Below are positions 53,696 to 64,000 of a stretch of 64,000 nucleotides of DNA, piece by piece. Below the pieces are notes generated by a model. The model was not told where the DNA came from. It made no database searches and saw nothing but the letters and a program-made list of their open reading frames with translations. The position numbers were made by a program, and so were the translations under genes. Position 1 is the stretch's first letter. Each line of letters opens with the position of its first letter. Source of the DNA: an uncultured Alphaproteobacteria bacterium (GTDB lineage Bacteria > Pseudomonadota > Alphaproteobacteria > HIMB59 > GCA-002718135); the NCBI GenBank assembly GCA_902553945.1, contig CACDMT010000003.1:9332-73331 (forward strand). Reading direction: 5' to 3'.

Positions 53696-55036
53696 ATGTT
53701 AAAAAAGAATGATTTAATAGAATACTTTTATAAAGGTATTAAAGATAAGAATAATTTAAAGATTGGCGTTGAACATGAAAAGTTTGTTCTTAACAAAAAT
53801 GATTATCAGCAAGTTTCTTATGAAATGAAAAATGGCATTAAAGACATTTTACTTAGATTTTTAAATAATGGATGGAAACCAAAATATGATGATGAAGGGG
53901 TAACAATAATCGCTTTAGAAAGATTTGGAGAAAATATAACCTTAGAGCCTGGTGGTCAGATAGAGTTATCAGGAGCACAATTAAATAATATTCATCAAAC
54001 ATGCACTGAAACAACAAGACACCTAAAAGAATTAAAAGAAATAGGTGAAGAATTTGATTTTATTTTACTTGGATTAGGTGTTGAACCAAGTCTAAAACTT
54101 GAAGAGCTTCCTTGGATGCCTAAACAGAGATATAGTATAATGAAAAATTACATGCCAACTGTTGGAACTTTAGGACATCATATGATGAAGAGAACATGTA
54201 CTAATCAAGTTAATTTAGATTTTTTTTCTGAAGATGATATGAAAAATAAATTTCGTTTAATGTTAAATCTTGAGGGAATAGTAACGGCGATTTTTGCTAA
54301 TTCACCATTTGATAATAAAAAAATATCAGAATATAAAAGTTTAAGAGCTCATTTTTGGCATCATACTGACAATAATAGGACAGGTTTATTACCATTTGTG
54401 TATGATAAAAGTTTCAATTTTGAAATGTATGTTGAATATGCACTAAATATTCCAATGTATTTCATTATCAGAGATCATAAATACATAGATATGACAAAGT
54501 ATACTTTTAAAGAATTTTATGAAGAAAAACCGTTAAGTAAAAACAATATTCAGCCAAATATTGAAGACTGGATCAATCATTTGTCAACATTATTTCCACA
54601 AGTTCGATTAAAACAATTTTTAGAAATTAGATCAATGGATGCTTGTTCTTGGGATTTGATTTGCTCTCAACCTGCGTTTTGGATAGGATTACTTTATAGC
54701 GAAAATTCTTTTAATAAGGCTCAAGAAATTGTTGAGAGTTGGACACAGGATGACAGAGATTATATTAACAAAATTGTTCCAAAAGAAGGCCTGCAAGCAA
54801 AATTTAAAGATGGAACTATTCTTGATATAGCTCAAAATCTCTTTGAAATATCTAAACAAGGTTTAGATGAACGTAATATTTTAGCTAAAAATAAACTTTA
54901 TAATGAAACATACTATTTAAATGATCTTGAAAAAAATTTAGAAAGAGGACAATCACCTGCTGATGTATTAATTGATAAATTTAATAAACAATGGAATCAA
55001 AATATATATAATATTTATTCTGAAAATATATTTTAA
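53696..55036 (+). CDS. gshA: glutamate--cysteine ligase (plant/alphaproteobacterial GCS2 type)
   Basis: 446 aa. IG.EHEKF, ++LEPGGQ.ELSGA, PK.RY..M..YMP..G..G..MM.RTC..QVNLDF and FP.VRLK.+LE.R..D motifs. It immediately precedes gshB. Confidence 0.85.
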   Translation: MLKKNDLIEYFYKGIKDKNNLKIGVEHEKFVLNKNDYQQVSYEMKNGIKDILLRFLNNGWKPKYDDEGVTIIALERFGENITLEPGGQIELSGAQLNNIHQTCTETTRHLKELKEIGEEFDFILLGLGVEPSLKLEELPWMPKQRYSIMKNYMPTVGTLGHHMMKRTCTNQVNLDFFSEDDMKNKFRLMLNLEGIVTAIFANSPFDNKKISEYKSLRAHFWHHTDNNRTGLLPFVYDKSFNFEMYVEYALNIPMYFIIRDHKYIDMTKYTFKEFYEEKPLSKNNIQPNIEDWINHLSTLFPQVRLKQFLEIRSMDACSWDLICSQPAFWIGLLYSENSFNKAQEIVESWTQDDRDYINKIVPKEGLQAKFKDGTILDIAQNLFEISKQGLDERNILAKNKLYNETYYLNDLEKNLERGQSPADVLIDKFNKQWNQNIYNIYSENIF

Positions 55037-55974
55037 TGAAAAAAAAAATTGCAATTCAAATGGACAAAATTGAGAGTATTGATTACAAATTTGATACTTC
55101 TTTTTTAATAGGATACGAGGCACAGCAAAGAAACTACGATATATTTTATTATAACCCTAATGACTTAATTATTAAAAATAACAACGTACAAGCAACAGGC
55201 TTTTATGTGAAATTGAATCTAGATGAAAATGATTATTTCAAGTATGATTCGGAAAAAATTAAAGTAGATTTAAAAAATTATAATTTTATTTTTTTACGTC
55301 AAGACCCACCTTTTGATATGAATTATATTACTTCTACGTATATTTTAGATCTCTTACCAAAGACAACTAAAGTAATTAATAATCCAACAGCAGTAAGAAA
55401 TGCCACTGAAAAATTATTTACATTTAACTTTAAAGAATTTATGCCACCTACAATTGTAACAAGAAATATTAATGATATTAGTAAATTTTTAAATAATGTT
55501 GAAGAAATTATAACTAAACCACTTTATGGAAATGGTGGCGTAGGTATTCATCGATTTAATAAACGAAATTTCAATCCAGATATTTTAAAAAAATATCTAG
55601 ATTTGCCTATAATGATACAAAAATACATTAAAGAAATTGATCAAGGTGATAGAAGAATAATTCTTATTGATGGAGAATATTGTGGATCAGTTTCTCGGAT
55701 TCCAAAAGATGGGGATATAAAGGCTAATTTTCATGCTGGAGGCATACCCTATAAGACAGATTTAGTTTTTCGAGATAAGGAAATTATTGATATACTTGGA
55801 CCAAAATTAAGAAAATTTGATCTATTTTTTGTAGGAATTGATGTTATTGGCAACTACTTGACAGAAATTAATGTTACTTCTCCCACAGGAATTAAGCAAA
55901 TCAACACATTAAATAATGTAAGTCTAGAGAAAGTTTTTTGGGATAAGCTTGAAGCCAAATATAAATTAGTTTAA
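55036..55974 (+). CDS. gshB: glutathione synthetase (ATP-grasp)
   Basis: 312 aa, collinear with E. coli GshB: D.SF....EAQ.R, +R.DPPFD..YI.+TYIL, NEKLF, KPL.G.GG..I.R, GD.R+.+.DGE, R.N..AGG and +VG+D+IG..LTEINVTSPT. Confidence 0.93.
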   Translation: MKKKIAIQMDKIESIDYKFDTSFLIGYEAQQRNYDIFYYNPNDLIIKNNNVQATGFYVKLNLDENDYFKYDSEKIKVDLKNYNFIFLRQDPPFDMNYITSTYILDLLPKTTKVINNPTAVRNATEKLFTFNFKEFMPPTIVTRNINDISKFLNNVEEIITKPLYGNGGVGIHRFNKRNFNPDILKKYLDLPIMIQKYIKEIDQGDRRIILIDGEYCGSVSRIPKDGDIKANFHAGGIPYKTDLVFRDKEIIDILGPKLRKFDLFFVGIDVIGNYLTEINVTSPTGIKQINTLNNVSLEKVFWDKLEAKYKLV

Positions 55975-55999
55975 TTACAAAATATCAAAGGACACAGTT

Positions 56000-56566
56000 A
56001 TGAATAATGAAAGAATTTTAATAAATAAGTTGAAAAGTTTTGAAAATATAAATTCAAATCTTCTAAATATTGTATTAGCTCTTTTTGGCACCCTATTATT
56101 AGCTATATCCTCTAAAATTCAAGTTCCTTTTTGGCCTGTTCCTATGACAATGCAAACTTTTGTGATTTTTTTAATAGGAATGACATATGGTATTCGTTTG
56201 TCCTTTGCTACAGTTGCATTGTATCTTTTTGAAGGTGCAGCAGGTTTACCAGTCTTTGCATCTGGTGGAGGGATTGCTTATTTAACTGGTCCTACAGCAG
56301 GATACCTTTACGGCATGTTATTTGCTTCAATAGTAATTAGTTACTTCGCAAATTTAGGATTCAGTAAAACCTATTTCAAGGCAACTATTTCACTGCTTAT
56401 TGGATCTATAATAATTTTTTCAATTGGAATAATTTATCTAGGCTCAATTATTGGTTATCAAAAAGCAATAGCAGTTGGGTTACTCCCATTTATTCCTAGT
56501 GAATTATTTAAAATTGCACTAGCAGTTAGCTTAATCCCAACAATTCAAAAAATTATTAAAAAATAA
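56000..56566 (+). CDS. bioY: biotin transporter BioY
   Basis: 188 aa, about 6 TM helices. PVPMT.QTF...L.G, G.P.F+.G.GG....GPT.GYL.G and LP.F+P....K motifs. Confidence 0.88.
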   Translation: MNNERILINKLKSFENINSNLLNIVLALFGTLLLAISSKIQVPFWPVPMTMQTFVIFLIGMTYGIRLSFATVALYLFEGAAGLPVFASGGGIAYLTGPTAGYLYGMLFASIVISYFANLGFSKTYFKATISLLIGSIIIFSIGIIYLGSIIGYQKAIAVGLLPFIPSELFKIALAVSLIPTIQKIIKK

Positions 56567-56571
56567 TTTTA

Positions 56572-57462
56572 ATGAAAATTGGTATTGATTTGGGTGGCAC
56601 CAAAACTGAAGGGATTCTTATTGACTCCAATGGTAAAGAATTAAAGCGTGAAAGAATTAAAACTGAAAAAAACTATGATGGCACTATTAATGGAATATTA
56701 TCAATAGTAAAAAATTTTGAAAGTTCTTTTGGTAATGTTAATTCTATTGGCATAGGTATGCCTGGGGCAATTTCTGCTGACTCCGCATTAATAAAAAATG
56801 CAAACTCGATATGGCTAAATGGTAAACCACTTAAAAAAGATTTAGAAAAAATTTTAAATAGAAAAATCAATTTAGAAAATGATGCAAATTGTTTTGCATT
56901 GTCTGAAGCTGTAGATGGTGGCGGTAAAGGTTATAAAGTTGTTTTTGGTGTAATTATTGGAACAGGTGTAGGAGGCGGTATTGTGATAGATCACAAAGTT
57001 CTCCAAGGTAGAAATAACATAGCCGGTGAGTGGGGACATGTTACTCTTCCAAATAGGTCTGACGATGAAAAGAAATTTGTTAAAGATTGTTACTGTGGAA
57101 AAAATGGTTGTATGGAGACATATATTTCAGGACCTGGTTTTGCTTCAACCTTTAATTTACGTTTTAATAAAAATTATGATTCCCATCAAATACTAGAAGG
57201 TTTTAAAAATGAAAATTCAGACTGTAATTTTGCCCTTAAACAATACACAGATCATTTAGCAAGAGGCTTATCTTTAGTATGCAATATTCTTGATCCAGAT
57301 GTTATCGTGCTAGGAGGAGGAATGTCAAATATTGATTTTATTTATGAAAATATTGATGTAGCCTTAAAAAAATATGTTTTTACAGATACACTTCACACAA
57401 AAGTTGTAAAAAATATTCATGGTGATTCTAGTGGAGTTAGAGGAGCAGCTTGGCTTTCCTAA
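56572..57462 (+). CDS. ROK-family sugar kinase (NagK/Mak-like)
   Basis: 296 aa, collinear with E. coli NagK: G.D+GGTK, GIG.PG, L.NDANCFALSEA, G.I.GTGVGGG, GE.GH and the Zn motif C.CG..GC.E.Y+SG.G. Confidence 0.8.
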   Translation: MKIGIDLGGTKTEGILIDSNGKELKRERIKTEKNYDGTINGILSIVKNFESSFGNVNSIGIGMPGAISADSALIKNANSIWLNGKPLKKDLEKILNRKINLENDANCFALSEAVDGGGKGYKVVFGVIIGTGVGGGIVIDHKVLQGRNNIAGEWGHVTLPNRSDDEKKFVKDCYCGKNGCMETYISGPGFASTFNLRFNKNYDSHQILEGFKNENSDCNFALKQYTDHLARGLSLVCNILDPDVIVLGGGMSNIDFIYENIDVALKKYVFTDTLHTKVVKNIHGDSSGVRGAAWLS

Positions 57463-58910
57463 ATTCCACCCATTGATATATATTTTATAATTAAATAATC
57501 ATCTAAGCCATATCTTGATCCTTCTCTACCCATTCCTGACTCTTTTACTCCACCAAAAGGAACTTCAGGAATAGTTGGTAAACCATTGTTGATAGATACG
57601 ATACCGTATTCCAAAGCTTCTGCTACCCTCCAAACTCGACCAATGTCACGTGAATAGAAATAAGAGGCAAGTCCATACGGGGTGTTATTAGCCATTTTAA
57701 TTACTTCATCATCATTGGAAAATTTATAAACTGGTGCAACGGGACCAAACGTTTCTTCAAATGTTATTTTTGCTTTAGTTGATACATTAGAAAGAACTGT
57801 TGGTTGATAAAAATTTCCTCCAAGAGAATGAACAGCACCTCCGACTGCAATTTTAGCACCTATATTTACAGCATCTTGAACATGATCAATAACCTTTTCT
57901 AAAGATGATTTATCAATAAGTGGACCAGAAACTATACCTTTATCCAAACCATTTCCAACCTTAATATTTTTTACATCATTTGTAAATTTTTCTAAAAAGA
58001 TATCATATACACTTTCATGAACAAAAAGTCTGTTTGTGCAAATACATGTTTGACCACTATTCCTAAATTTACTTTGTAATGCACCAGAAACTGCTTCATC
58101 AATATCTGCATCTTCAAAAACAATAAATGGAGCATGCCCTCCTAATTCCATTGAAATTTTTTTAACTGTTGAAGCACTTTGTTCCATTAATATCTTTCCT
58201 ACTTCTGTTGATCCGGTAAAGGAAATTTTTTTAACATTTGGATTTTTTGTTAATTCCATTCCTATTTCTTTTGCTGAACCAGTAATGATATTAAATACTC
58301 CTTTTGGAAACCCAGCTTTTTTTGCAAGTTCAGCTACTGCTAAAGCTGAGAAAGGTGTTTGACTTGCAGGTTTAACTACAGTTGTACAGCCAACAGCTAG
58401 AGCAGCAGCACATTTTCGAGTTATCATTGAATTTGGAAAATTCCATGGTGTTATAGCTCCAACTACTCCTATCGGTTGCTTAATTATCACAATTCTTTTA
58501 CCTGGCCTAGGATCTGGAATAATATCGCCATAAACTCTTTTGGCCTCTTCGGCATAAAATTCAATATAAGAGGCACCCATTAATATTTCGCCTTTTGCTT
58601 CGGCAAGAGGTTTACCTTGTTCAATCGTCATTATTTTTGCAAGGTCATCAACATTTTCAATAATAAGATCACTCCATTTTTTTAAAATAATCGATCTTTC
58701 TTTTGCAGTTGTATTTTTCCAACTTTGGAAAGCATTATTAGCATGATCTATTACAGATTTTGTTTCCTCAGCTGAAAAGTTTGGAACTTTTCCTATAATT
58801 TCCAAAGTTGCGGGATTATTAACTTCAATGGTTTTACCATTTTGACTATCTGACCATTGGCCATTTACAAAACATTTTTCATTAAAAAGCGATTTATTGT
58901 TTAATTCCAT
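57459..58910 (-). CDS. gabD: NAD(P)+-dependent succinate-semialdehyde dehydrogenase (GabD/Ssd type)
   Basis: 483 aa, near-collinear with E. coli GabD: INGQW, EQGKPLAEAKGEI, ITPWNFP..MITRK, KPASQTPFSALA+AELA, ELGG.APFIVF+DAD+D, catalytic GQTC+C.NR and EETFGP.AP motifs. Confidence 0.9.
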   Translation of the reverse strand: MELNNKSLFNEKCFVNGQWSDSQNGKTIEVNNPATLEIIGKVPNFSAEETKSVIDHANNAFQSWKNTTAKERSIILKKWSDLIIENVDDLAKIMTIEQGKPLAEAKGEILMGASYIEFYAEEAKRVYGDIIPDPRPGKRIVIIKQPIGVVGAITPWNFPNSMITRKCAAALAVGCTTVVKPASQTPFSALAVAELAKKAGFPKGVFNIITGSAKEIGMELTKNPNVKKISFTGSTEVGKILMEQSASTVKKISMELGGHAPFIVFEDADIDEAVSGALQSKFRNSGQTCICTNRLFVHESVYDIFLEKFTNDVKNIKVGNGLDKGIVSGPLIDKSSLEKVIDHVQDAVNIGAKIAVGGAVHSLGGNFYQPTVLSNVSTKAKITFEETFGPVAPVYKFSNDDEVIKMANNTPYGLASYFYSRDIGRVWRVAEALEYGIVSINNGLPTIPEVPFGGVKESGMGREGSRYGLDDYLIIKYISMGGI

Positions 58911-58952: not shown

Positions 58953-60059
58953 ATGACAATAGTAAATTCTTGGAATGAATGGGACCCACTTAAACATGTT
59001 ATTGTGGGCACAGTAGAAAATTCAAATGTGCCACCAATGGAACCTGCTTTAGAACCTAAAATAAGTAAAGATAGTGGAATGGTAGGATCTCATGGACCTA
59101 GAAGTAAAGAGTCTATAGATAAAGCAAATATTCAGTTAAATAATTTTATTAAAATTCTTGAGTCGTATAACATAAAAGTTGATCGACCAACTCCCATTGA
59201 TTTTACGAAAGTGATTGAAACTCCAGATTGGCAAAATGAAGGTCAATTTGGATGTATGCCTCCAAGGGATGTAATTTTAACAGTTGGAAATGAAATGTTA
59301 GAAGCACCAATGTCATATCGTTGTCGTTGGTTTGAGTACCTTGCTTACAGGCCTCTACTTGAAAAATATTATGATGAAGATCCTAATATGCGTTGGGAAG
59401 CTGCTCCTAAACCTCGCTTAACAAAAGCAACTTATAAATCAAATTATTTACCAGAAGGTATTACAAAAGAACAAAGGTATAAAAAAATTGAAGAAAGGGA
59501 TATGATTCTTACAGAACGGGAACCACTATTTGATGCTGCAGAAGTTTTGCGTTTTGGTAAAGATTTATTTTATCATAATAATTTTACCTCAAACTTAAAA
59601 GGTTTGAATTGGTTGCAAAGACATTTTCCAAACCATCGTGTTCATCAAATAAATTTACCTGGAGAACTAATTCCAACACATATTGATGCATGCTTTACTC
59701 CAGTTAAGCCAGGGATAATAATTATTAACCCAAACAGAAAAATTTCAAATGATCAACGAAAAATTTTTGATGATAATAAATGGGAAATACATGAAGCTGC
59801 ACCTTCTATTCATAATACTCCACCTCCTATGTGTTATTCATCTATATGGTTATCAATGAATGTTTTGATTATAAATCCTAAAACTATATGTGTTGAAGCA
59901 TCAGAGGAAAAAATGATTAAACAAATGGAGGCTTTTGGTATGGATGTAATTCCTGTCCCCTTTAGAGATGCTTATGCCTTTGGTGGAAGTCTTCATTGTG
60001 CAACTACAGATGTTTATAGAGAAGGAGAATGTGAAGATTACTTTCCTAATCAACTATGA
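58953..60059 (+). CDS. amidinotransferase of the L-arginine:glycine amidinotransferase (AGAT/StrB1/CyrA) family
   Basis: 368 aa, collinear with remembered vertebrate AGAT: NEWDPL..VIVG, MPPRD, VGNE.LEAPM..R.R.FEY.AYR, APKP, EP.FDAA, RVH.I, P.HIDA, SS.WLSMNVL and the C-terminal GGSLHCATTDV carrying the catalytic Cys. Confidence 0.85.
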   Translation: MTIVNSWNEWDPLKHVIVGTVENSNVPPMEPALEPKISKDSGMVGSHGPRSKESIDKANIQLNNFIKILESYNIKVDRPTPIDFTKVIETPDWQNEGQFGCMPPRDVILTVGNEMLEAPMSYRCRWFEYLAYRPLLEKYYDEDPNMRWEAAPKPRLTKATYKSNYLPEGITKEQRYKKIEERDMILTEREPLFDAAEVLRFGKDLFYHNNFTSNLKGLNWLQRHFPNHRVHQINLPGELIPTHIDACFTPVKPGIIIINPNRKISNDQRKIFDDNKWEIHEAAPSIHNTPPPMCYSSIWLSMNVLIINPKTICVEASEEKMIKQMEAFGMDVIPVPFRDAYAFGGSLHCATTDVYREGECEDYFPNQL

Positions 60060-60811
60060 AAAATTTTAATCAAAATAATTTTAAAGCAGATTTAAAAGAT
60101 ACTAACTACAATAAAGTAGGCGTTATAACTTTATCAACTGATTTCACAATTGAACAAGATTTCAGAAAAATATGTTATAATCTACCTGTAGATATTTTTT
60201 TTAATAGAATTCCATTTTTGAATCCTCTGACTCATGAAAATTATATCAAGATGGCAGATCATATTACTGAAACAACACATCAGATATTACCTAATGAGAA
60301 AGTTGATGTAGTAGCATATGGATGCACTTCTGGCACAATTGAAATAGGAGAAGAAAGAATAAAATCTGAAATACATAAATCTAAAGCAGACGCCTTAATA
60401 ACTACTCCAATTACTGCTGCAATTAAGGCTTTCAAATTATCGAGTTTCAAAAAAATTGCAGTTCTCACTCCTTACCCCAAAAATGTAAATATCAAAGTAT
60501 ATGACTATTTAATTAAACAAGGGTTTGATATTAAATCTTTTAGTTCATTTAATTTGAATTATGATTCTGAAATTGCAAAGGTTACACAAGATAGTTTAAT
60601 AAAATCAATTTCATCTATAGATTTAACAGAAGTTGATTGTCTATTTGTTTCTTGCACAGCTTTAAAAATTTTAGATTTAATTCAAGATTTGGAAGAAAGT
60701 TTAAAAACAAATATTATCTCAAGTAATCAAGCTATAATATGGGATTCTTTACGTTTATCAAAAACTAACAACAAAATTGATGGTTTTGGCAAACTTTTTA
60801 AATTACATTGA
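60056..60811 (+). CDS. Asp/Glu/hydantoin-racemase-superfamily protein (maleate isomerase/arylmalonate decarboxylase-like; EutA-like)
   Basis: 251 aa. Two pseudo-symmetric Cys motifs (VVAYGCTSG and LFVSCTAL) typical of this fold. ATGA overlap with the amidinotransferase gene. Confidence 0.7.
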   Translation: MKNFNQNNFKADLKDTNYNKVGVITLSTDFTIEQDFRKICYNLPVDIFFNRIPFLNPLTHENYIKMADHITETTHQILPNEKVDVVAYGCTSGTIEIGEERIKSEIHKSKADALITTPITAAIKAFKLSSFKKIAVLTPYPKNVNIKVYDYLIKQGFDIKSFSSFNLNYDSEIAKVTQDSLIKSISSIDLTEVDCLFVSCTALKILDLIQDLEESLKTNIISSNQAIIWDSLRLSKTNNKIDGFGKLFKLH

Positions 60812-60823
60812 TGTAGGTTTAAA

Positions 60824-61786
60824 TTGATTACACTTAAACAAATACAACATGCACATAAGAAAATTTTACCTTATGTTAACTATACTCCGCTAGTCCATTC
60901 TGAATATTTATCAAAAAGTTCTAAAGTAAAACTCAAATTAGAAAATTTTCAAATTACCGGATCATTCAAGTTAAGAGGTGCAGTTAATAAGTTGCTTTCT
61001 TTAAGTGAACAAGAAAAGCAAAAAGGTGTAATTGCAGTTTCTACTGGAAATCATGGAAAAGGAGTAGCTTATGCTTCAAAAGTATTAGGCATTCAATCAA
61101 CAATATATATGTCATCAATGGTTCCCAATTATAGAAAAGAAGCTATTGAAAAATTAGGTGCAAAAGTAGAGATAGTTGGAAAAAATAGTGATGAAGCAGA
61201 TCTGTTTGCTAAAGAATTTTCAAAAGAAAAAAATATTACGTTAATTCATCCCTTTGATGATGAAGATATAATTATTGGGCAAGGAACCGTAGGTCTTGAA
61301 ATGTTAAACGAGTTTCCTGAAGTTGATACTGTTATTATACCTACTTCGGGTGGAGGACTTATTTCTGGAATAGCACAAGCAATTAAACTTCAAAAACCAG
61401 ATACAAAGGTCATTGCTGTATCTATGGAAAGAGGTCCATCTATGTATGAAAGCTTAAAAAGGGGAGAGCCAGTAGATGTTGATGAAGTAGAAACTTTAGC
61501 AGACTGCTTAGGAGGAAGTATTGGCTTGGATAACAAATTTACATTTAACATCGTAAAAGAATATGTAGATGATTTCGTTTTAATAAGTGAAGAAAAAATT
61601 GCAGAGGGTATTAGAATGAATTTCATGGAACATAAAATTGTATCTGAAGGAGCAGCCGCAACAAGTGTTATGGTTGTTAAAGATAAATTAACACCACATC
61701 TTGGAAAAAATATAATTTGTTTAATTTGTGGGGGAAATATTGATTCTGAATTATTTAACAAAGTTTTAAGCCATGCTCATACTTAA
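60824..61786 (+). CDS. threonine/serine dehydratase-family PLP enzyme (EutB-like)
   Basis: TTG start, 320 aa. TPL, E..Q.TGSFKLRGA (PLP lysine), STGNHG.GVAYA and SGGGLISG phosphate loop. No ACT regulatory domain. Confidence 0.8.
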   Translation: MITLKQIQHAHKKILPYVNYTPLVHSEYLSKSSKVKLKLENFQITGSFKLRGAVNKLLSLSEQEKQKGVIAVSTGNHGKGVAYASKVLGIQSTIYMSSMVPNYRKEAIEKLGAKVEIVGKNSDEADLFAKEFSKEKNITLIHPFDDEDIIIGQGTVGLEMLNEFPEVDTVIIPTSGGGLISGIAQAIKLQKPDTKVIAVSMERGPSMYESLKRGEPVDVDEVETLADCLGGSIGLDNKFTFNIVKEYVDDFVLISEEKIAEGIRMNFMEHKIVSEGAAATSVMVVKDKLTPHLGKNIICLICGGNIDSELFNKVLSHAHT

Positions 61787-62747
61787 AAAAAAAGATATTA
61801 TTCAATATGTGACTCTTAATGAAGTCCTAATACCAATAATAGAAGAAGCTTTTATCAGTTTATCAAAAGGAAAAACTGTCATGCCCCCTATTATGAGAAT
61901 TGATATTGAAAAATATCATGGTGAATCAGATGTTAAGGCTGCTTATGTTGAAGGCTTGGATAGTTTTGCGATAAAAATAGCGTCTGGTTTTTTTGATAAT
62001 CCTAAATTAGGCTTACCATCTAGTAATGGATTAATGGTTCTGCTAGACTCTGAGACTGGAGTTATAAAATCTGTCTTATTAGATGAGGGATATTTAACAG
62101 ATACGAGAACTGCAATAGCAGGTGCAATAGCTTCAAAATACTTATCAAATCAAGACTCTAATACTGTTGGAATTATTGGAGCTGGAATTCAAGCAAGGTT
62201 ACAATTGAAAGCAATCTTATTAGTAAGAAAAATTAACAAAATAAATATATGGGCACGAGACCAAGTTAAAGCTACTCAATTTGTAGATAGTCTAAAAGAT
62301 TTAAAAATTGAAATAAACATATCTCAATCTTGTAAGGATTTAGCTAGTGTTTCAGATATCATTATTACAACAACTCCAAGTAAAAAACCTCTTTTAGAAT
62401 TTGATTGGATTAAAAAGGGCACTCATATAACAGCTATGGGATCTGATGCTGAACAAAAAAATGAATTACATCCAAATATAATAAAACTATGTGATACGTA
62501 TGTCCCAGATAGTCAACATCAAACAACTATCTTAGGAGAATTAAACCATGCCATTAAGGAAAATTTAATATCACCTAATGATAAATTCAATGATCTTGGA
62601 AGTATAATTATTGATCCAAGTTTGGGAAGAAAAAATAAAGAAGACATTACAATATGTGATTTGACAGGAACGGGTGTTCAAGATACTGCGATAGCAAGAT
62701 ATACATATAATATCTGTAAAAAAAATAATTTAGGCATTAAAATTTAA
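61773..62747 (+). CDS. ornithine cyclodeaminase/mu-crystallin-family NAD(P) enzyme (EutC-like)
   Basis: 324 aa. LTD.RTA.A.A.A.KYL, Rossmann GIIGAGIQAR, +ITT.T.S..P and H+.AMGSD....ELHP motifs. 14-nt overlap with the preceding gene. Confidence 0.8.
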   Translation: MLILKKKDIIQYVTLNEVLIPIIEEAFISLSKGKTVMPPIMRIDIEKYHGESDVKAAYVEGLDSFAIKIASGFFDNPKLGLPSSNGLMVLLDSETGVIKSVLLDEGYLTDTRTAIAGAIASKYLSNQDSNTVGIIGAGIQARLQLKAILLVRKINKINIWARDQVKATQFVDSLKDLKIEINISQSCKDLASVSDIIITTTPSKKPLLEFDWIKKGTHITAMGSDAEQKNELHPNIIKLCDTYVPDSQHQTTILGELNHAIKENLISPNDKFNDLGSIIIDPSLGRKNKEDITICDLTGTGVQDTAIARYTYNICKKNNLGIKI

Positions 62748-62750
62748 TCT

Positions 62751-64000
62751 ATGAGTCAAGCTGTAATTAACAAAACATCTGATTACTTTAAATCAAAAGG
62801 AGTTGTCCTACCAAGTATTAAGGAATTGCAAAATCCTAAAACTATTAATGAGGATATAAAAAATTCTCTTAAAAAAATTAATAATAATGAAGCTAATCCA
62901 TTAAATTTATTTAGAGTTCATTGGTTTAACAAAAAAGATCAGTCAGGTTTTGCAGACGAACCTGAGCACATTGTACTCCCATCAGAATTTACAGGAGTAA
63001 AAGCAAAAATCATTGTAAACATGGGTAGATATTTCCCTTTAATAACAGCCCATAAGGTTTTAGCTGCATATGGTTGCCTACTTCCAAGAATATTAAATGG
63101 TACTTTTGATTATGAAAAACATAAAGCTGTTTGGCCATCTACAGGCAATTACTGTAGAGGTGGAGTTGCTATTTCACGTATTATGGGACTTAGTAGTATC
63201 GCTATACTTCCAGAGGGAATGAGTAATGAAAGATTTGAGTGGCTTAATAATTGGGTTGAAGATAAAAAAAATATCATAAAGACAAAAGGAACTGAAAGTA
63301 ATGTTAAGGAAATTTACGATGCTTGTAATGAATTAAAAAAAGACAATAAGAATGATATAATTAATCAATTTGATGAATATTATAATTATGGAATTCATCG
63401 TTCAGTAACAGGCCCATCATTTGAAAAATCATTTTTAAAGGTTAAAGGTAATAGTAATTTAACACCAAGATTTTATGTCAGTGCATCAGGTTCGAGCGGC
63501 ACCTTAGCTGCTGGTGATTATCTTAAAGACAAATATCAAACAAAAATTGCAGTTGTAGAAGCTCTAGAATGTCCAACTTTACTTCATGGTGGTTATGGTG
63601 AACATAATATTCAAGGTATAGGAGATAAACACGTCCCGCTAATTCATAATGTAATGAATACTGATTTTGTAGTTGATGTTTCTGATCAAGCCACAAACAA
63701 TCTTAACATGATTTTTAATACTGTTATTGGAAGAAAATTTTTAATAGAGCGAAAAAATTTTGATCCTGTCTTTGTTTCTAGGCTGCCTGAATTTGGTTTT
63801 TCTGCAATAGCTAACATAATTGCTTCAATAAAACTTGCAAAATATATGGATTTAAATAGCAATGATGCAATTATAACGGTTGCTACAGATGGTGCTGATT
63901 TGTACATGTCAGAATTAAATAAAACAATAAACGAATTTAAAAATAATTATGATGAAATTTTATGTGCTGAATTATACGGAAAGCACTTATTAGGTTTATC
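62751..64000 (+). CDS. long CysK/CBS-fold (fold-type II) PLP-dependent enzyme, 5' partial view (runs off the window; absent from ORF track)
   Basis: My own translation from ATG 62751 gives 416 codons without a stop to the window end: MSQAVINKTSDYFKSKGVVLPSIKEL...NLFRVHWFN...ITAHKVLAAYG...PSTGNYCRGGVAISRIMGL...SASGSSGTLAAG...EHNIQGIGDKHVP... The STGN..G.A, glycine-rich loop and H.IQGIGD..+P segments parallel O-acetylserine sulfhydrylase. It has an extra N-terminal region of about 85 aa. Confidence 0.75.
   Translation, partial: MSQAVINKTSDYFKSKGVVLPSIKELQNPKTINEDIKNSLKKINNNEANPLNLFRVHWFNKKDQSGFADEPEHIVLPSEFTGVKAKIIVNMGRYFPLITAHKVLAAYGCLLPRILNGTFDYEKHKAVWPSTGNYCRGGVAISRIMGLSSIAILPEGMSNERFEWLNNWVEDKKNIIKTKGTESNVKEIYDACNELKKDNKNDIINQFDEYYNYGIHRSVTGPSFEKSFLKVKGNSNLTPRFYVSASGSSGTLAAGDYLKDKYQTKIAVVEALECPTLLHGGYGEHNIQGIGDKHVPLIHNVMNTDFVVDVSDQATNNLNMIFNTVIGRKFLIERKNFDPVFVSRLPEFGFSAIANIIASIKLAKYMDLNSNDAIITVATDGADLYMSELNKTINEFKNNYDEILCAELYGKHLLGL

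Follow-up and report, generated by a model that had tools for sequence, protein, structure and literature searches.

What would an enzyme of the L-arginine:glycine amidinotransferase (AGAT) type do in the compact genome of a marine bacterium? The question is raised by an open reading frame (ORF) of 368 codons in a 64,000-nucleotide stretch of contig CACDMT010000003.1, hereafter the window, from an uncultured alphaproteobacterium of the HIMB59 lineage whose 1.15-Mb assembly comprises 58 contigs and is 63% complete. A first-pass annotation, made from the sequence of the window, had proposed that the product is a catalytically intact AGAT-type transamidinase and that the ornithine it releases is passed to an ornithine cyclodeaminase (OCD) encoded three genes downstream. 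As described below, the enzyme assignment holds and the coupling to OCD is not supported. By alignment and predicted structure the gene is an intact member of the AGAT family, an enzyme family that is itself already known. With the gene contexts considered as well, we put at roughly one in two the chance that its product is a reversible arginine/ornithine transamidinase, predicted to be catalytically competent, that acts on glycine/guanidinoacetate-type compounds in the catabolism or salvage of nitrogenous solutes.

Family membership, predicted fold and active site

The ORF begins with ATG, is preceded at a distance of 8 nt by a Shine-Dalgarno-like AAGGA, and faces an opposite strand closed by many stops. 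When the protein is compared with PDB sequences by phmmer, residues 4-364 align with residues 66-422 of human AGAT (1jdw; E 2.8e-72), so that the whole-length collinearity with vertebrate AGAT described in the first-pass annotation is confirmed, at about 36-40% identity. Further matches to SxtG (3.7e-67, 231 bits), HsvA (1.9e-57, 199 bits) and StrB1 (1.5e-54, 189 bits) identify proteins of the same family and fold that are all more distant than AGAT. A Pfam search of the protein found no family above cut-off, the best being PAD_porph at 16 bits, and an NCBIfam search likewise returned nothing above cut-off. Judged by the alignments, homology to AGAT is far beyond chance. An AlphaFold2 model built from 37 sequences has a mean pLDDT of 95.4, and the top seven Foldseek matches of this model in the PDB are all amidinotransferases (TM 0.85-0.93), with AGAT (4jdw) at 0.93, SxtG at 0.89, HsvA at 0.88 and StrB1 at 0.86. 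The hydrolases of the superfamily, namely arginine deiminase, DDAH, ArgZ/AgrE and NnhA, are reached only at TM 0.54-0.62 and 10-16% identity; a grouping of the protein with these hydrolases, which the first-pass annotation had considered, is excluded by the distance between transferases at 0.86-0.93 and hydrolases at no more than 0.62.

The Asp/His/Cys triad read by eye in the motifs EPLFDAAE (starting at residue 190), PTHIDA (241) and GGSLHCATT (344) is likewise real, as Asp194, His243 and Cys349 align with Asp254, His303 and Cys407, the catalytic residues of AGAT in human numbering (PMC3684758). In a family alignment of 74 sequences, 73 of which were counted for invariance with L039 set aside, the equivalents of D170, D254, H303, D305, R322, S354 and C407 are invariant in 73/73 marine homologs, and a misassigned or substituted triad can be discounted. 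The alignment also places D106 on D170 and D245 on D305, which we take to be guanidino-binding positions, and R262 on R322 and S296/S297 on S354/S355, which presumably bind the carboxylate.

The comparison of acceptor pockets proposed in the first-pass annotation thus gives a divided answer, because the binding residues are those of AGAT and the lid is not. At positions 298-302 the lid reads D-P-N-P-M in human AGAT, D-M-H-P-M in AmtA and D-I-F-P-S in CyrA (PMC4887976). Most marine homologs have D-P-Y-P-I, and the clade to which the window protein belongs has D/E-L-I-P-T, with E-L-I-P-T and one additional residue before the lid in the window protein itself. The Asn300/Met302 of the AGAT-type lid are therefore not kept, and are replaced by Ile240 and Thr242. 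A hydrophobic pair at 299/300 and a hydroxyl residue (Ser/Thr) at 302 are features that this lid shares with CyrA/AoaA of cylindrospermopsin synthesis, a bacterial enzyme that keeps the same triad and is described as a strict Arg:Gly amidinotransferase (PMC3684758, PMC4887976); here CyrA was compared through its published lid and residues alone. The likeness is a weak lead to the substrate, and would bear on specificity rather than on family membership.

Given this active site, Cys349, helped by His243 and Asp194, would attack the guanidino carbon of a donor to give an S-amidino enzyme, from which the amidino group would be transferred to an amine acceptor. One substrate pair would very probably be arginine/ornithine, and for the second pair the likeliest candidate is glycine/guanidinoacetate or something closely related to it, for instance sarcosine/creatine. 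The favoured direction would be salvage, in which a dissolved guanidino compound and ornithine yield arginine and the free amine, and the enzyme would serve primary nitrogen metabolism and not a toxin or antibiotic pathway. Guanidinoacetate is reported to be a natural donor for both hAGAT and CyrA (PMC4887976).

Table 1. Positions in the window of the AGAT-type gene, its active-site codons and its neighbours
Feature	Position	Strand	Basis
AGAT-family amidinotransferase gene, 368 aa (P0001)	58953..60059	+	PDB phmmer, AF2 model, Foldseek
Asp106 codon, aligned with AGAT Asp170	59268..59270	+	phmmer and family alignment
Asp194 codon, aligned with AGAT Asp254 (triad)	59532..59534	+	phmmer and family alignment
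'300-flap' lid, residues 238-242, E-L-I-P-T	59664..59678	+	family alignment; reference flaps from PMC4887976
His243-Ile244-Asp245 codons, aligned with AGAT His303 and Asp305	59679..59687	+	phmmer alignment; H243 and D245 invariant 73/73
Cys349 codon, aligned with AGAT nucleophile Cys407	59997..59999	+	phmmer alignment; invariant 73/73
Divergent aldehyde dehydrogenase (ALDH), succinate-semialdehyde dehydrogenase subfamily; candidate Ssd/DoeC-type	57459..58910	-	TIGR01780, 716 bits (cut-off 646)
EutA-like, arylmalonate decarboxylase / Asp-Glu racemase superfamily	60056..60811	+	PF17645; TIGR02990, 207 bits (cut-off 318)
EutB-like PLP dehydratase	60824..61786	+	NF005680, 384 bits (cut-off 413); TIGR02991, 354 (cut-off 413)
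EutC-like, OCD/mu-crystallin family	61773..62747	+	NF006141, 444 bits (cut-off 408); TIGR02992, 412 (cut-off 472)
Fold-type II PLP enzyme, distantly CysK-like; 480 aa in full, runs past window end	62751..63998	+	profile matches

Distribution and gene neighbourhoods

The AGAT-type gene is near-core in the window's family and not rare, being present in 92 of 116 species genomes and in 10 of the 11 of high quality. A genome scan confirmed AGAT-type relatives in at least 593 species genomes, and 229 clusters were found at E<=1e-30 among 1.8 billion cluster representatives. The statement that the bacterial family is known mainly from secondary-metabolite clusters understates this marine clade, whose close homologs are labelled Pelagibacteraceae or 'uncultured Alphaproteobacteria' and already carry the JGI name 'glycine amidinotransferase'. 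The NCBI name 'serine/threonine protein kinase' given to five of them (P0021, P0025, P0033, P0085 and P0097) is without support in any search and looks like a misnomer. In one genome of the same genus (G016:C1:83199-84300) the gene lies in two pieces separated by an in-frame TAA, a possible pseudogene or sequencing error.

A tree of 94 rows, made up of the window protein, 19 locus proteins and those 74 of 150 listed representatives that are 330-480 aa long (the other 76, fragments or fusions, were left out), places the window protein in a 28-row clade with an SH-aLRT support of 99, apart from the StrB1 clade, which was identified through P0165 (443 bits to 1bwd). The phylogeny called for in the first-pass annotation is thereby answered in part, since StrB1 is the sole named reference in a tree without the sequences of human AGAT, CyrA, SxtG, AmtA and HsvA. 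AGAT was the best PDB match for each of P0128, P0134, P0127, P0150 and P0162, at only 218-296 bits. The stem of the window clade is long, 0.48 as against about 0.05-0.2 for its relatives, and 27 fixed differences, lid positions included, set the clade apart from other homologs.

The gene lies in a window of about 29% G+C, some 9 kb beyond the gene for ribosomal protein L17, which agrees with the streamlined, core-like context described in the first-pass annotation. That annotation had missed that EutA- and EutB-like genes stand between the AGAT-type and the EutC-like gene, and that together they open an ectoine-type catabolic array. The three Eut-like proteins all score below cut-off in the TIGR equivalogs for EutA, EutB and EutC, the EutC-like one passing only the 'cyclodeaminase' model NF006141 (Table 1), and the PLP enzyme that follows is labelled only 'PALP family' in a protein atlas. 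Beyond it, on the same strand, are an M20 hydrolase (314 bits in the DoeB2 model, cut-off 550) and, at the contig end, an M24 gene whose product resembles creatinase or prolidase only distantly (62-72 bits). In a contiguous relative (L013/L022 and L093) the array goes on with a gene resembling trans-3-hydroxyproline dehydratase, SoxB-D-A-G and a DoeA-like hydrolase (470 bits, cut-off 613), and farther on with an M19 dipeptidase, EamA, a PotA-type ABC transporter and a DadA-like gene. Contigs C45 and C18 of the assembly that contains the window carry the same pieces, and the DoeA-like gene of C18 scores 476 bits against the same cut-off of 613. The close-clade array contains the sarcosine-oxidase-type SoxBDAG and two M24 hydrolases. 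Among 28 close loci, ALDH is found in 27, EutA-like and EutB-like genes in 25 each and M20 in 17, the gaps being mostly contigs that end early. Profile matches identify the downstream genes as a diverged eutABC, DoeB2-like, M24, SoxBDAG and DoeA-like array, and the AGAT-type gene would head a conserved, one-strand set for the breakdown of nitrogen-rich small solutes, its PLP and M20 enzymes included.

No AstE/AspA-type EutE deacetylase, and no aminotransferase or regulator of ectoine clusters, was seen in the array. An Rfam scan found no regulatory RNA near the AGAT-type gene and only 5 tRNAs in the window, and the 12 contigs obtained from a single RNA run (X1, 0.05 of sampled words) are short, for the most part 90-95% alike, and never span two genes. 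Upstream of ALDH, positions 53696-57462 of the window encode GshA (GCS2 type), GshB, BioY and a ROK-family sugar kinase. On contig C18 of the window's genome (L090, 4304-7931), a few kb from the DoeA-like gene, are genes for a SoxC sulfite dehydrogenase (623 bits) and a SoxB thiosulfohydrolase (807 bits), both above cut-offs. In L008 the insert between the EutC-like and PLP genes includes a BisC-family molybdopterin S/N-oxide reductase, and L007 and L010 have the same spacing. The locus L027, considered as a case of AGAT without eut genes, was discarded as uninformative, because pieces of EutC turn up elsewhere in that single-cell genome, on different contigs.

Outside the close clade, 52 loci were available. 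Just one of them, L044, combines ALDH, AGAT and EutA, with a DoeA-like gene next in line; in the other 51 the homolog is without EutA. The Pelagibacter homologs are 61-62% identical to the window protein, with the same residues at active-site positions, and the ALDH neighbour is missing beside them. Three contexts recur in Pelagibacteraceae: MobA, MoeA, EamA, M24, homolog, an aldolase-like gene and amine oxidase; EamA and homolog with a convergent uncharacterised gene and MFS transporter; and, oriented divergently to the homolog, a Lys/Arg/Orn-type ABC transporter with an FAD monooxygenase. In the first context the M24 protein is a true creatinase, with E 3.2e-159 to 7yto and 3.9e-157 to 1chm. 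In L036:7857-12147, EamA, creatinase, homolog and a threonine-aldolase/GntG-like PLP enzyme are separated by gaps of 5, 3 and 2 nt, and the EamA-creatinase-homolog layout is also found in L034, L035, L038, L064, L071, L073, L078, L081 and L031. Among the 52 loci as a whole, creatinase occurs in 10, EamA in 21, a Lys/Arg/Orn-type binding protein in 7 and the aldolase-like gene in 9; in another genome set EamA directly abuts the homolog.

Three further loci, from other lineages, add other neighbours. A 481-aa fusion of a MobA-like nucleotidyltransferase with an arginase-family domain (L053:7468-8913, minus strand) faces, in convergent orientation, the genes for an AGAT homolog and an Asp/Glu racemase. 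An Anaerolineaceae contig (L039:9992-13609) carries three tandem amidinotransferase paralogs after genes for a peptide/opine-type ABC transporter. The Desulfobacterales locus L082:4399-14903, with a homolog 63% identical, combines a DAO-type oxidoreductase, ETF beta and alpha, a PAS-LuxR regulator, carbamate kinase, an uncharacterised 449-aa protein and an OTC-like carbamoyltransferase, a layout that recalls ATP-yielding deiminase pathways.

Weighing the possible functions

The reading of the protein as a reversible arginine/ornithine transamidinase in nitrogen-solute salvage builds on what was observed directly, namely that the protein belongs to the family, has its fold and an intact active site, and is conserved, together with the contexts of the gene. 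With vertebrate AGAT/GATM (1JDW/4JDW) the window protein shares its full-length alignment, triad, guanidino- and carboxylate-binding positions and fold; it differs in its lid and the residue before it, in the lack of a mitochondrial presequence, and in standing in a catabolic operon instead of a pathway to creatine. The annotated neighbours did not include a guanidinoacetate methyltransferase. CyrA belongs to a toxin cluster, whereas the window gene belongs to a near-core catabolic array. The Pelagibacter EamA-creatinase-homolog array has a homolog with the same invariant active-site positions, but differs from the window in its D-P-Y-P-I lid, in the adjacent true creatinase and aldolase-like gene, and in having no eut genes.

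Several observations weigh against this reading. Lid swaps left the specificity of AmtA unaltered (PMC4887976), and lid similarity is therefore a weak predictor of specificity. The long stem and the 27 fixed differences suggest that the specificity of the window clade may differ from that of the Pelagibacter homologs. Neighbourhoods vary widely between lineages, and adjacency is weak evidence in packed genomes. The upstream BioY and ROK genes are common to L044 and the window, with ALDH syntenic, so that the association of AGAT with eut genes arose once and was inherited, and L044 is not independent evidence. True creatinase was found in 0 of 116 genomes of the window's family at E<=1e-60, and the link to creatinase is thus not directly applicable to the window's genome. 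A rationale for transamidination as a way of avoiding urea was also considered. An arginase-family gene was not found in the window's 63%-complete genome; however, 4 of the 5 relatives searched have one, and the window's genome has a urease, so that a urea-avoiding route is not obviously needed and the rationale is weakened.

Foremost among the alternatives is that the enzyme was recruited to a dedicated step of an ectoine- or hydroxyectoine-type pathway, for which possible substrates would include diaminobutyrate, hydroxy-diaminobutyrate or an ectoine analogue in the form of a cyclic amidine or guanidine. The array shares with ectoine/hydroxyectoine clusters its EutA-, EutB- and EutC-like proteins, an Ssd-type ALDH, a DoeA-like hydrolase and, in one relative, EhuABCD, and differs in scoring mostly below equivalog cut-offs and in its extra AGAT, PLP, M20, M24, proline-racemase-like and SoxBDAG genes (PMC13188858). 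In favour of such a step, the AGAT-type stop and the EutA-like start overlap by 4 nt, the pair is kept in 25/28 close loci and in L044, and EhuABCD lies inside the array of L008 (13835-19758) with all four subunits above NCBIfam cut-offs; the long stem and altered lid would be consistent with a change of specificity. In the window's own 63%-complete genome no EhuABCD or UehABC transporter was found above cut-off, the best EhuB match being 43.5 bits. Against such a step, ectoine has a methyl-amidine and not a guanidino group, and both putative guanidino-binding Asp residues are kept. The homolog moreover lives without EutA in nearly all of the more distant loci, and a complete Pelagibacter genome that carries it has no EutC-like gene. 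Canonical clusters as described in PMC13188858 do not list an amidinotransferase among their genes, and papers that join ectoine with amidinotransferase are, by their titles and the opening of their abstracts, on other subjects. An ectoine-specific step is thus unlikely, and the functional link between the AGAT-type enzyme and the ectoine-type genes is drawn from their arrangement.

The coupling proposed in the first-pass annotation, in which arginine is converted to ornithine and the downstream OCD-family enzyme then yields proline and ammonia, fares somewhat less well still. It is true that ornithine is a product of transamidination from arginine and that the EutC-like protein falls in the OCD/mu-crystallin family, and there is a precedent in AgrE, a fold match and arginine-processing enzyme of the superfamily that was crystallised with ornithine and NAD+ and is fused to an OCD-like domain. 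However, the EutC-like protein scores 118 bits against the ornithine cyclodeaminase equivalog NF005762, whose cut-off is 350, and among solved structures it matches alanine dehydrogenase (177 bits), pyrroline-2-carboxylate reductase (162) and iminosuccinate reductase (124) ahead of OCD (1u7h/1x7d, 63). By these scores alanine dehydrogenase and pyrroline-2-carboxylate reductase are its nearer relatives and ornithine cyclodeaminase a more remote one, and its identification as an OCD, together with the flux from arginine to proline, is not supported. The gene resembling trans-3-hydroxyproline dehydratase in the relatives' array would offer the reductase another substrate, and Pelagibacter keeps the AGAT homolog without an EutC-like gene.

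An amidinotransferase of the HsvA type, acting on polyamines or agmatine supplied by a PotA-type ABC importer, is improbable. Genes for a PotA-like ATPase, an SBP_bac_8 binding protein and permeases adjoin homologs in L048 and L068 and lie downstream of the array in L093, and HsvA itself is among the relatives of solved structure. Nevertheless, the residues equivalent to R322 and S354/S355, presumably there to bind a carboxylate, are invariant, and both AGAT and SxtG outscore HsvA.

More improbable again is the suggestion that 4-guanidinobutyrate is stripped of its amidino group to give GABA, which would feed the divergent GabD-type dehydrogenase. The ALDH is a conserved divergent neighbour that scores above the cut-off of the succinate-semialdehyde dehydrogenase subfamily, but annotations of the array in the window and its close relatives contain no GABA transaminase, Pelagibacter homologs lack the ALDH neighbour, and the 'ssd' of ectoine clusters is of the same ALDH type (PMC13188858). 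As a candidate the ALDH would fit the Ssd/DoeC role of those clusters as well as it fits a GABA route.

That the protein is a hydrolase, either deiminase or amidinohydrolase, is hardly credible, for although the Desulfobacterales homolog stands beside two deiminase-pathway partners, carbamate kinase and an OTC-like carbamoyltransferase, sequence and fold group the protein with four solved transferases and leave the hydrolases remote.

A possible amidino-salvage route in marine bacteria

Several published observations bear on the transamidinase reading. Boysen et al. reported creatine labelled from sarcosine in seawater, for which an 'unidentified enzyme' or a reversible creatinase was invoked (PMC9321204), and published accounts credit SAR11 with creatinase genes and AEGEAN-169 with the potential to degrade creatine (PMC3686209, PMC11366302). 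A preprint on a bloom metatranscriptome already counts K00613 as taurine-to-taurocyamine. The literature covered on amidinotransferase, creatinase and guanidinoacetate, supplements being outside that coverage, contained nothing on the marine AGAT clade. A more far-reaching and doubtful extension is that the marine AGAT clade constitutes a widespread, near-core system of amidino salvage, in which guanidinoacetate or creatine and ornithine would give arginine and glycine or sarcosine, that its reverse reaction could account for the formation of creatine from sarcosine in seawater, and that the window clade would have branched off with a changed lid and come into the service of an osmolyte array of the ectoine type.

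In the surface ocean SAR11-type bacteria are dominant, and which nitrogen-rich compounds they consume is a subject of continuing study. A transamidinase encoded near creatinase in Pelagibacter, and near sarcosine-oxidase and ectoine-type genes in the window, points to a candidate route joining arginine, glycine or sarcosine, and guanidino compounds. The enzyme is small and looks soluble. If it proves to be only a housekeeping Arg:Gly enzyme, it would be an ordinary member of a known family; if amidino salvage is true, it would add a nitrogen-scavenging reaction to models of marine metabolism and provide a candidate for the flux from sarcosine to creatine.

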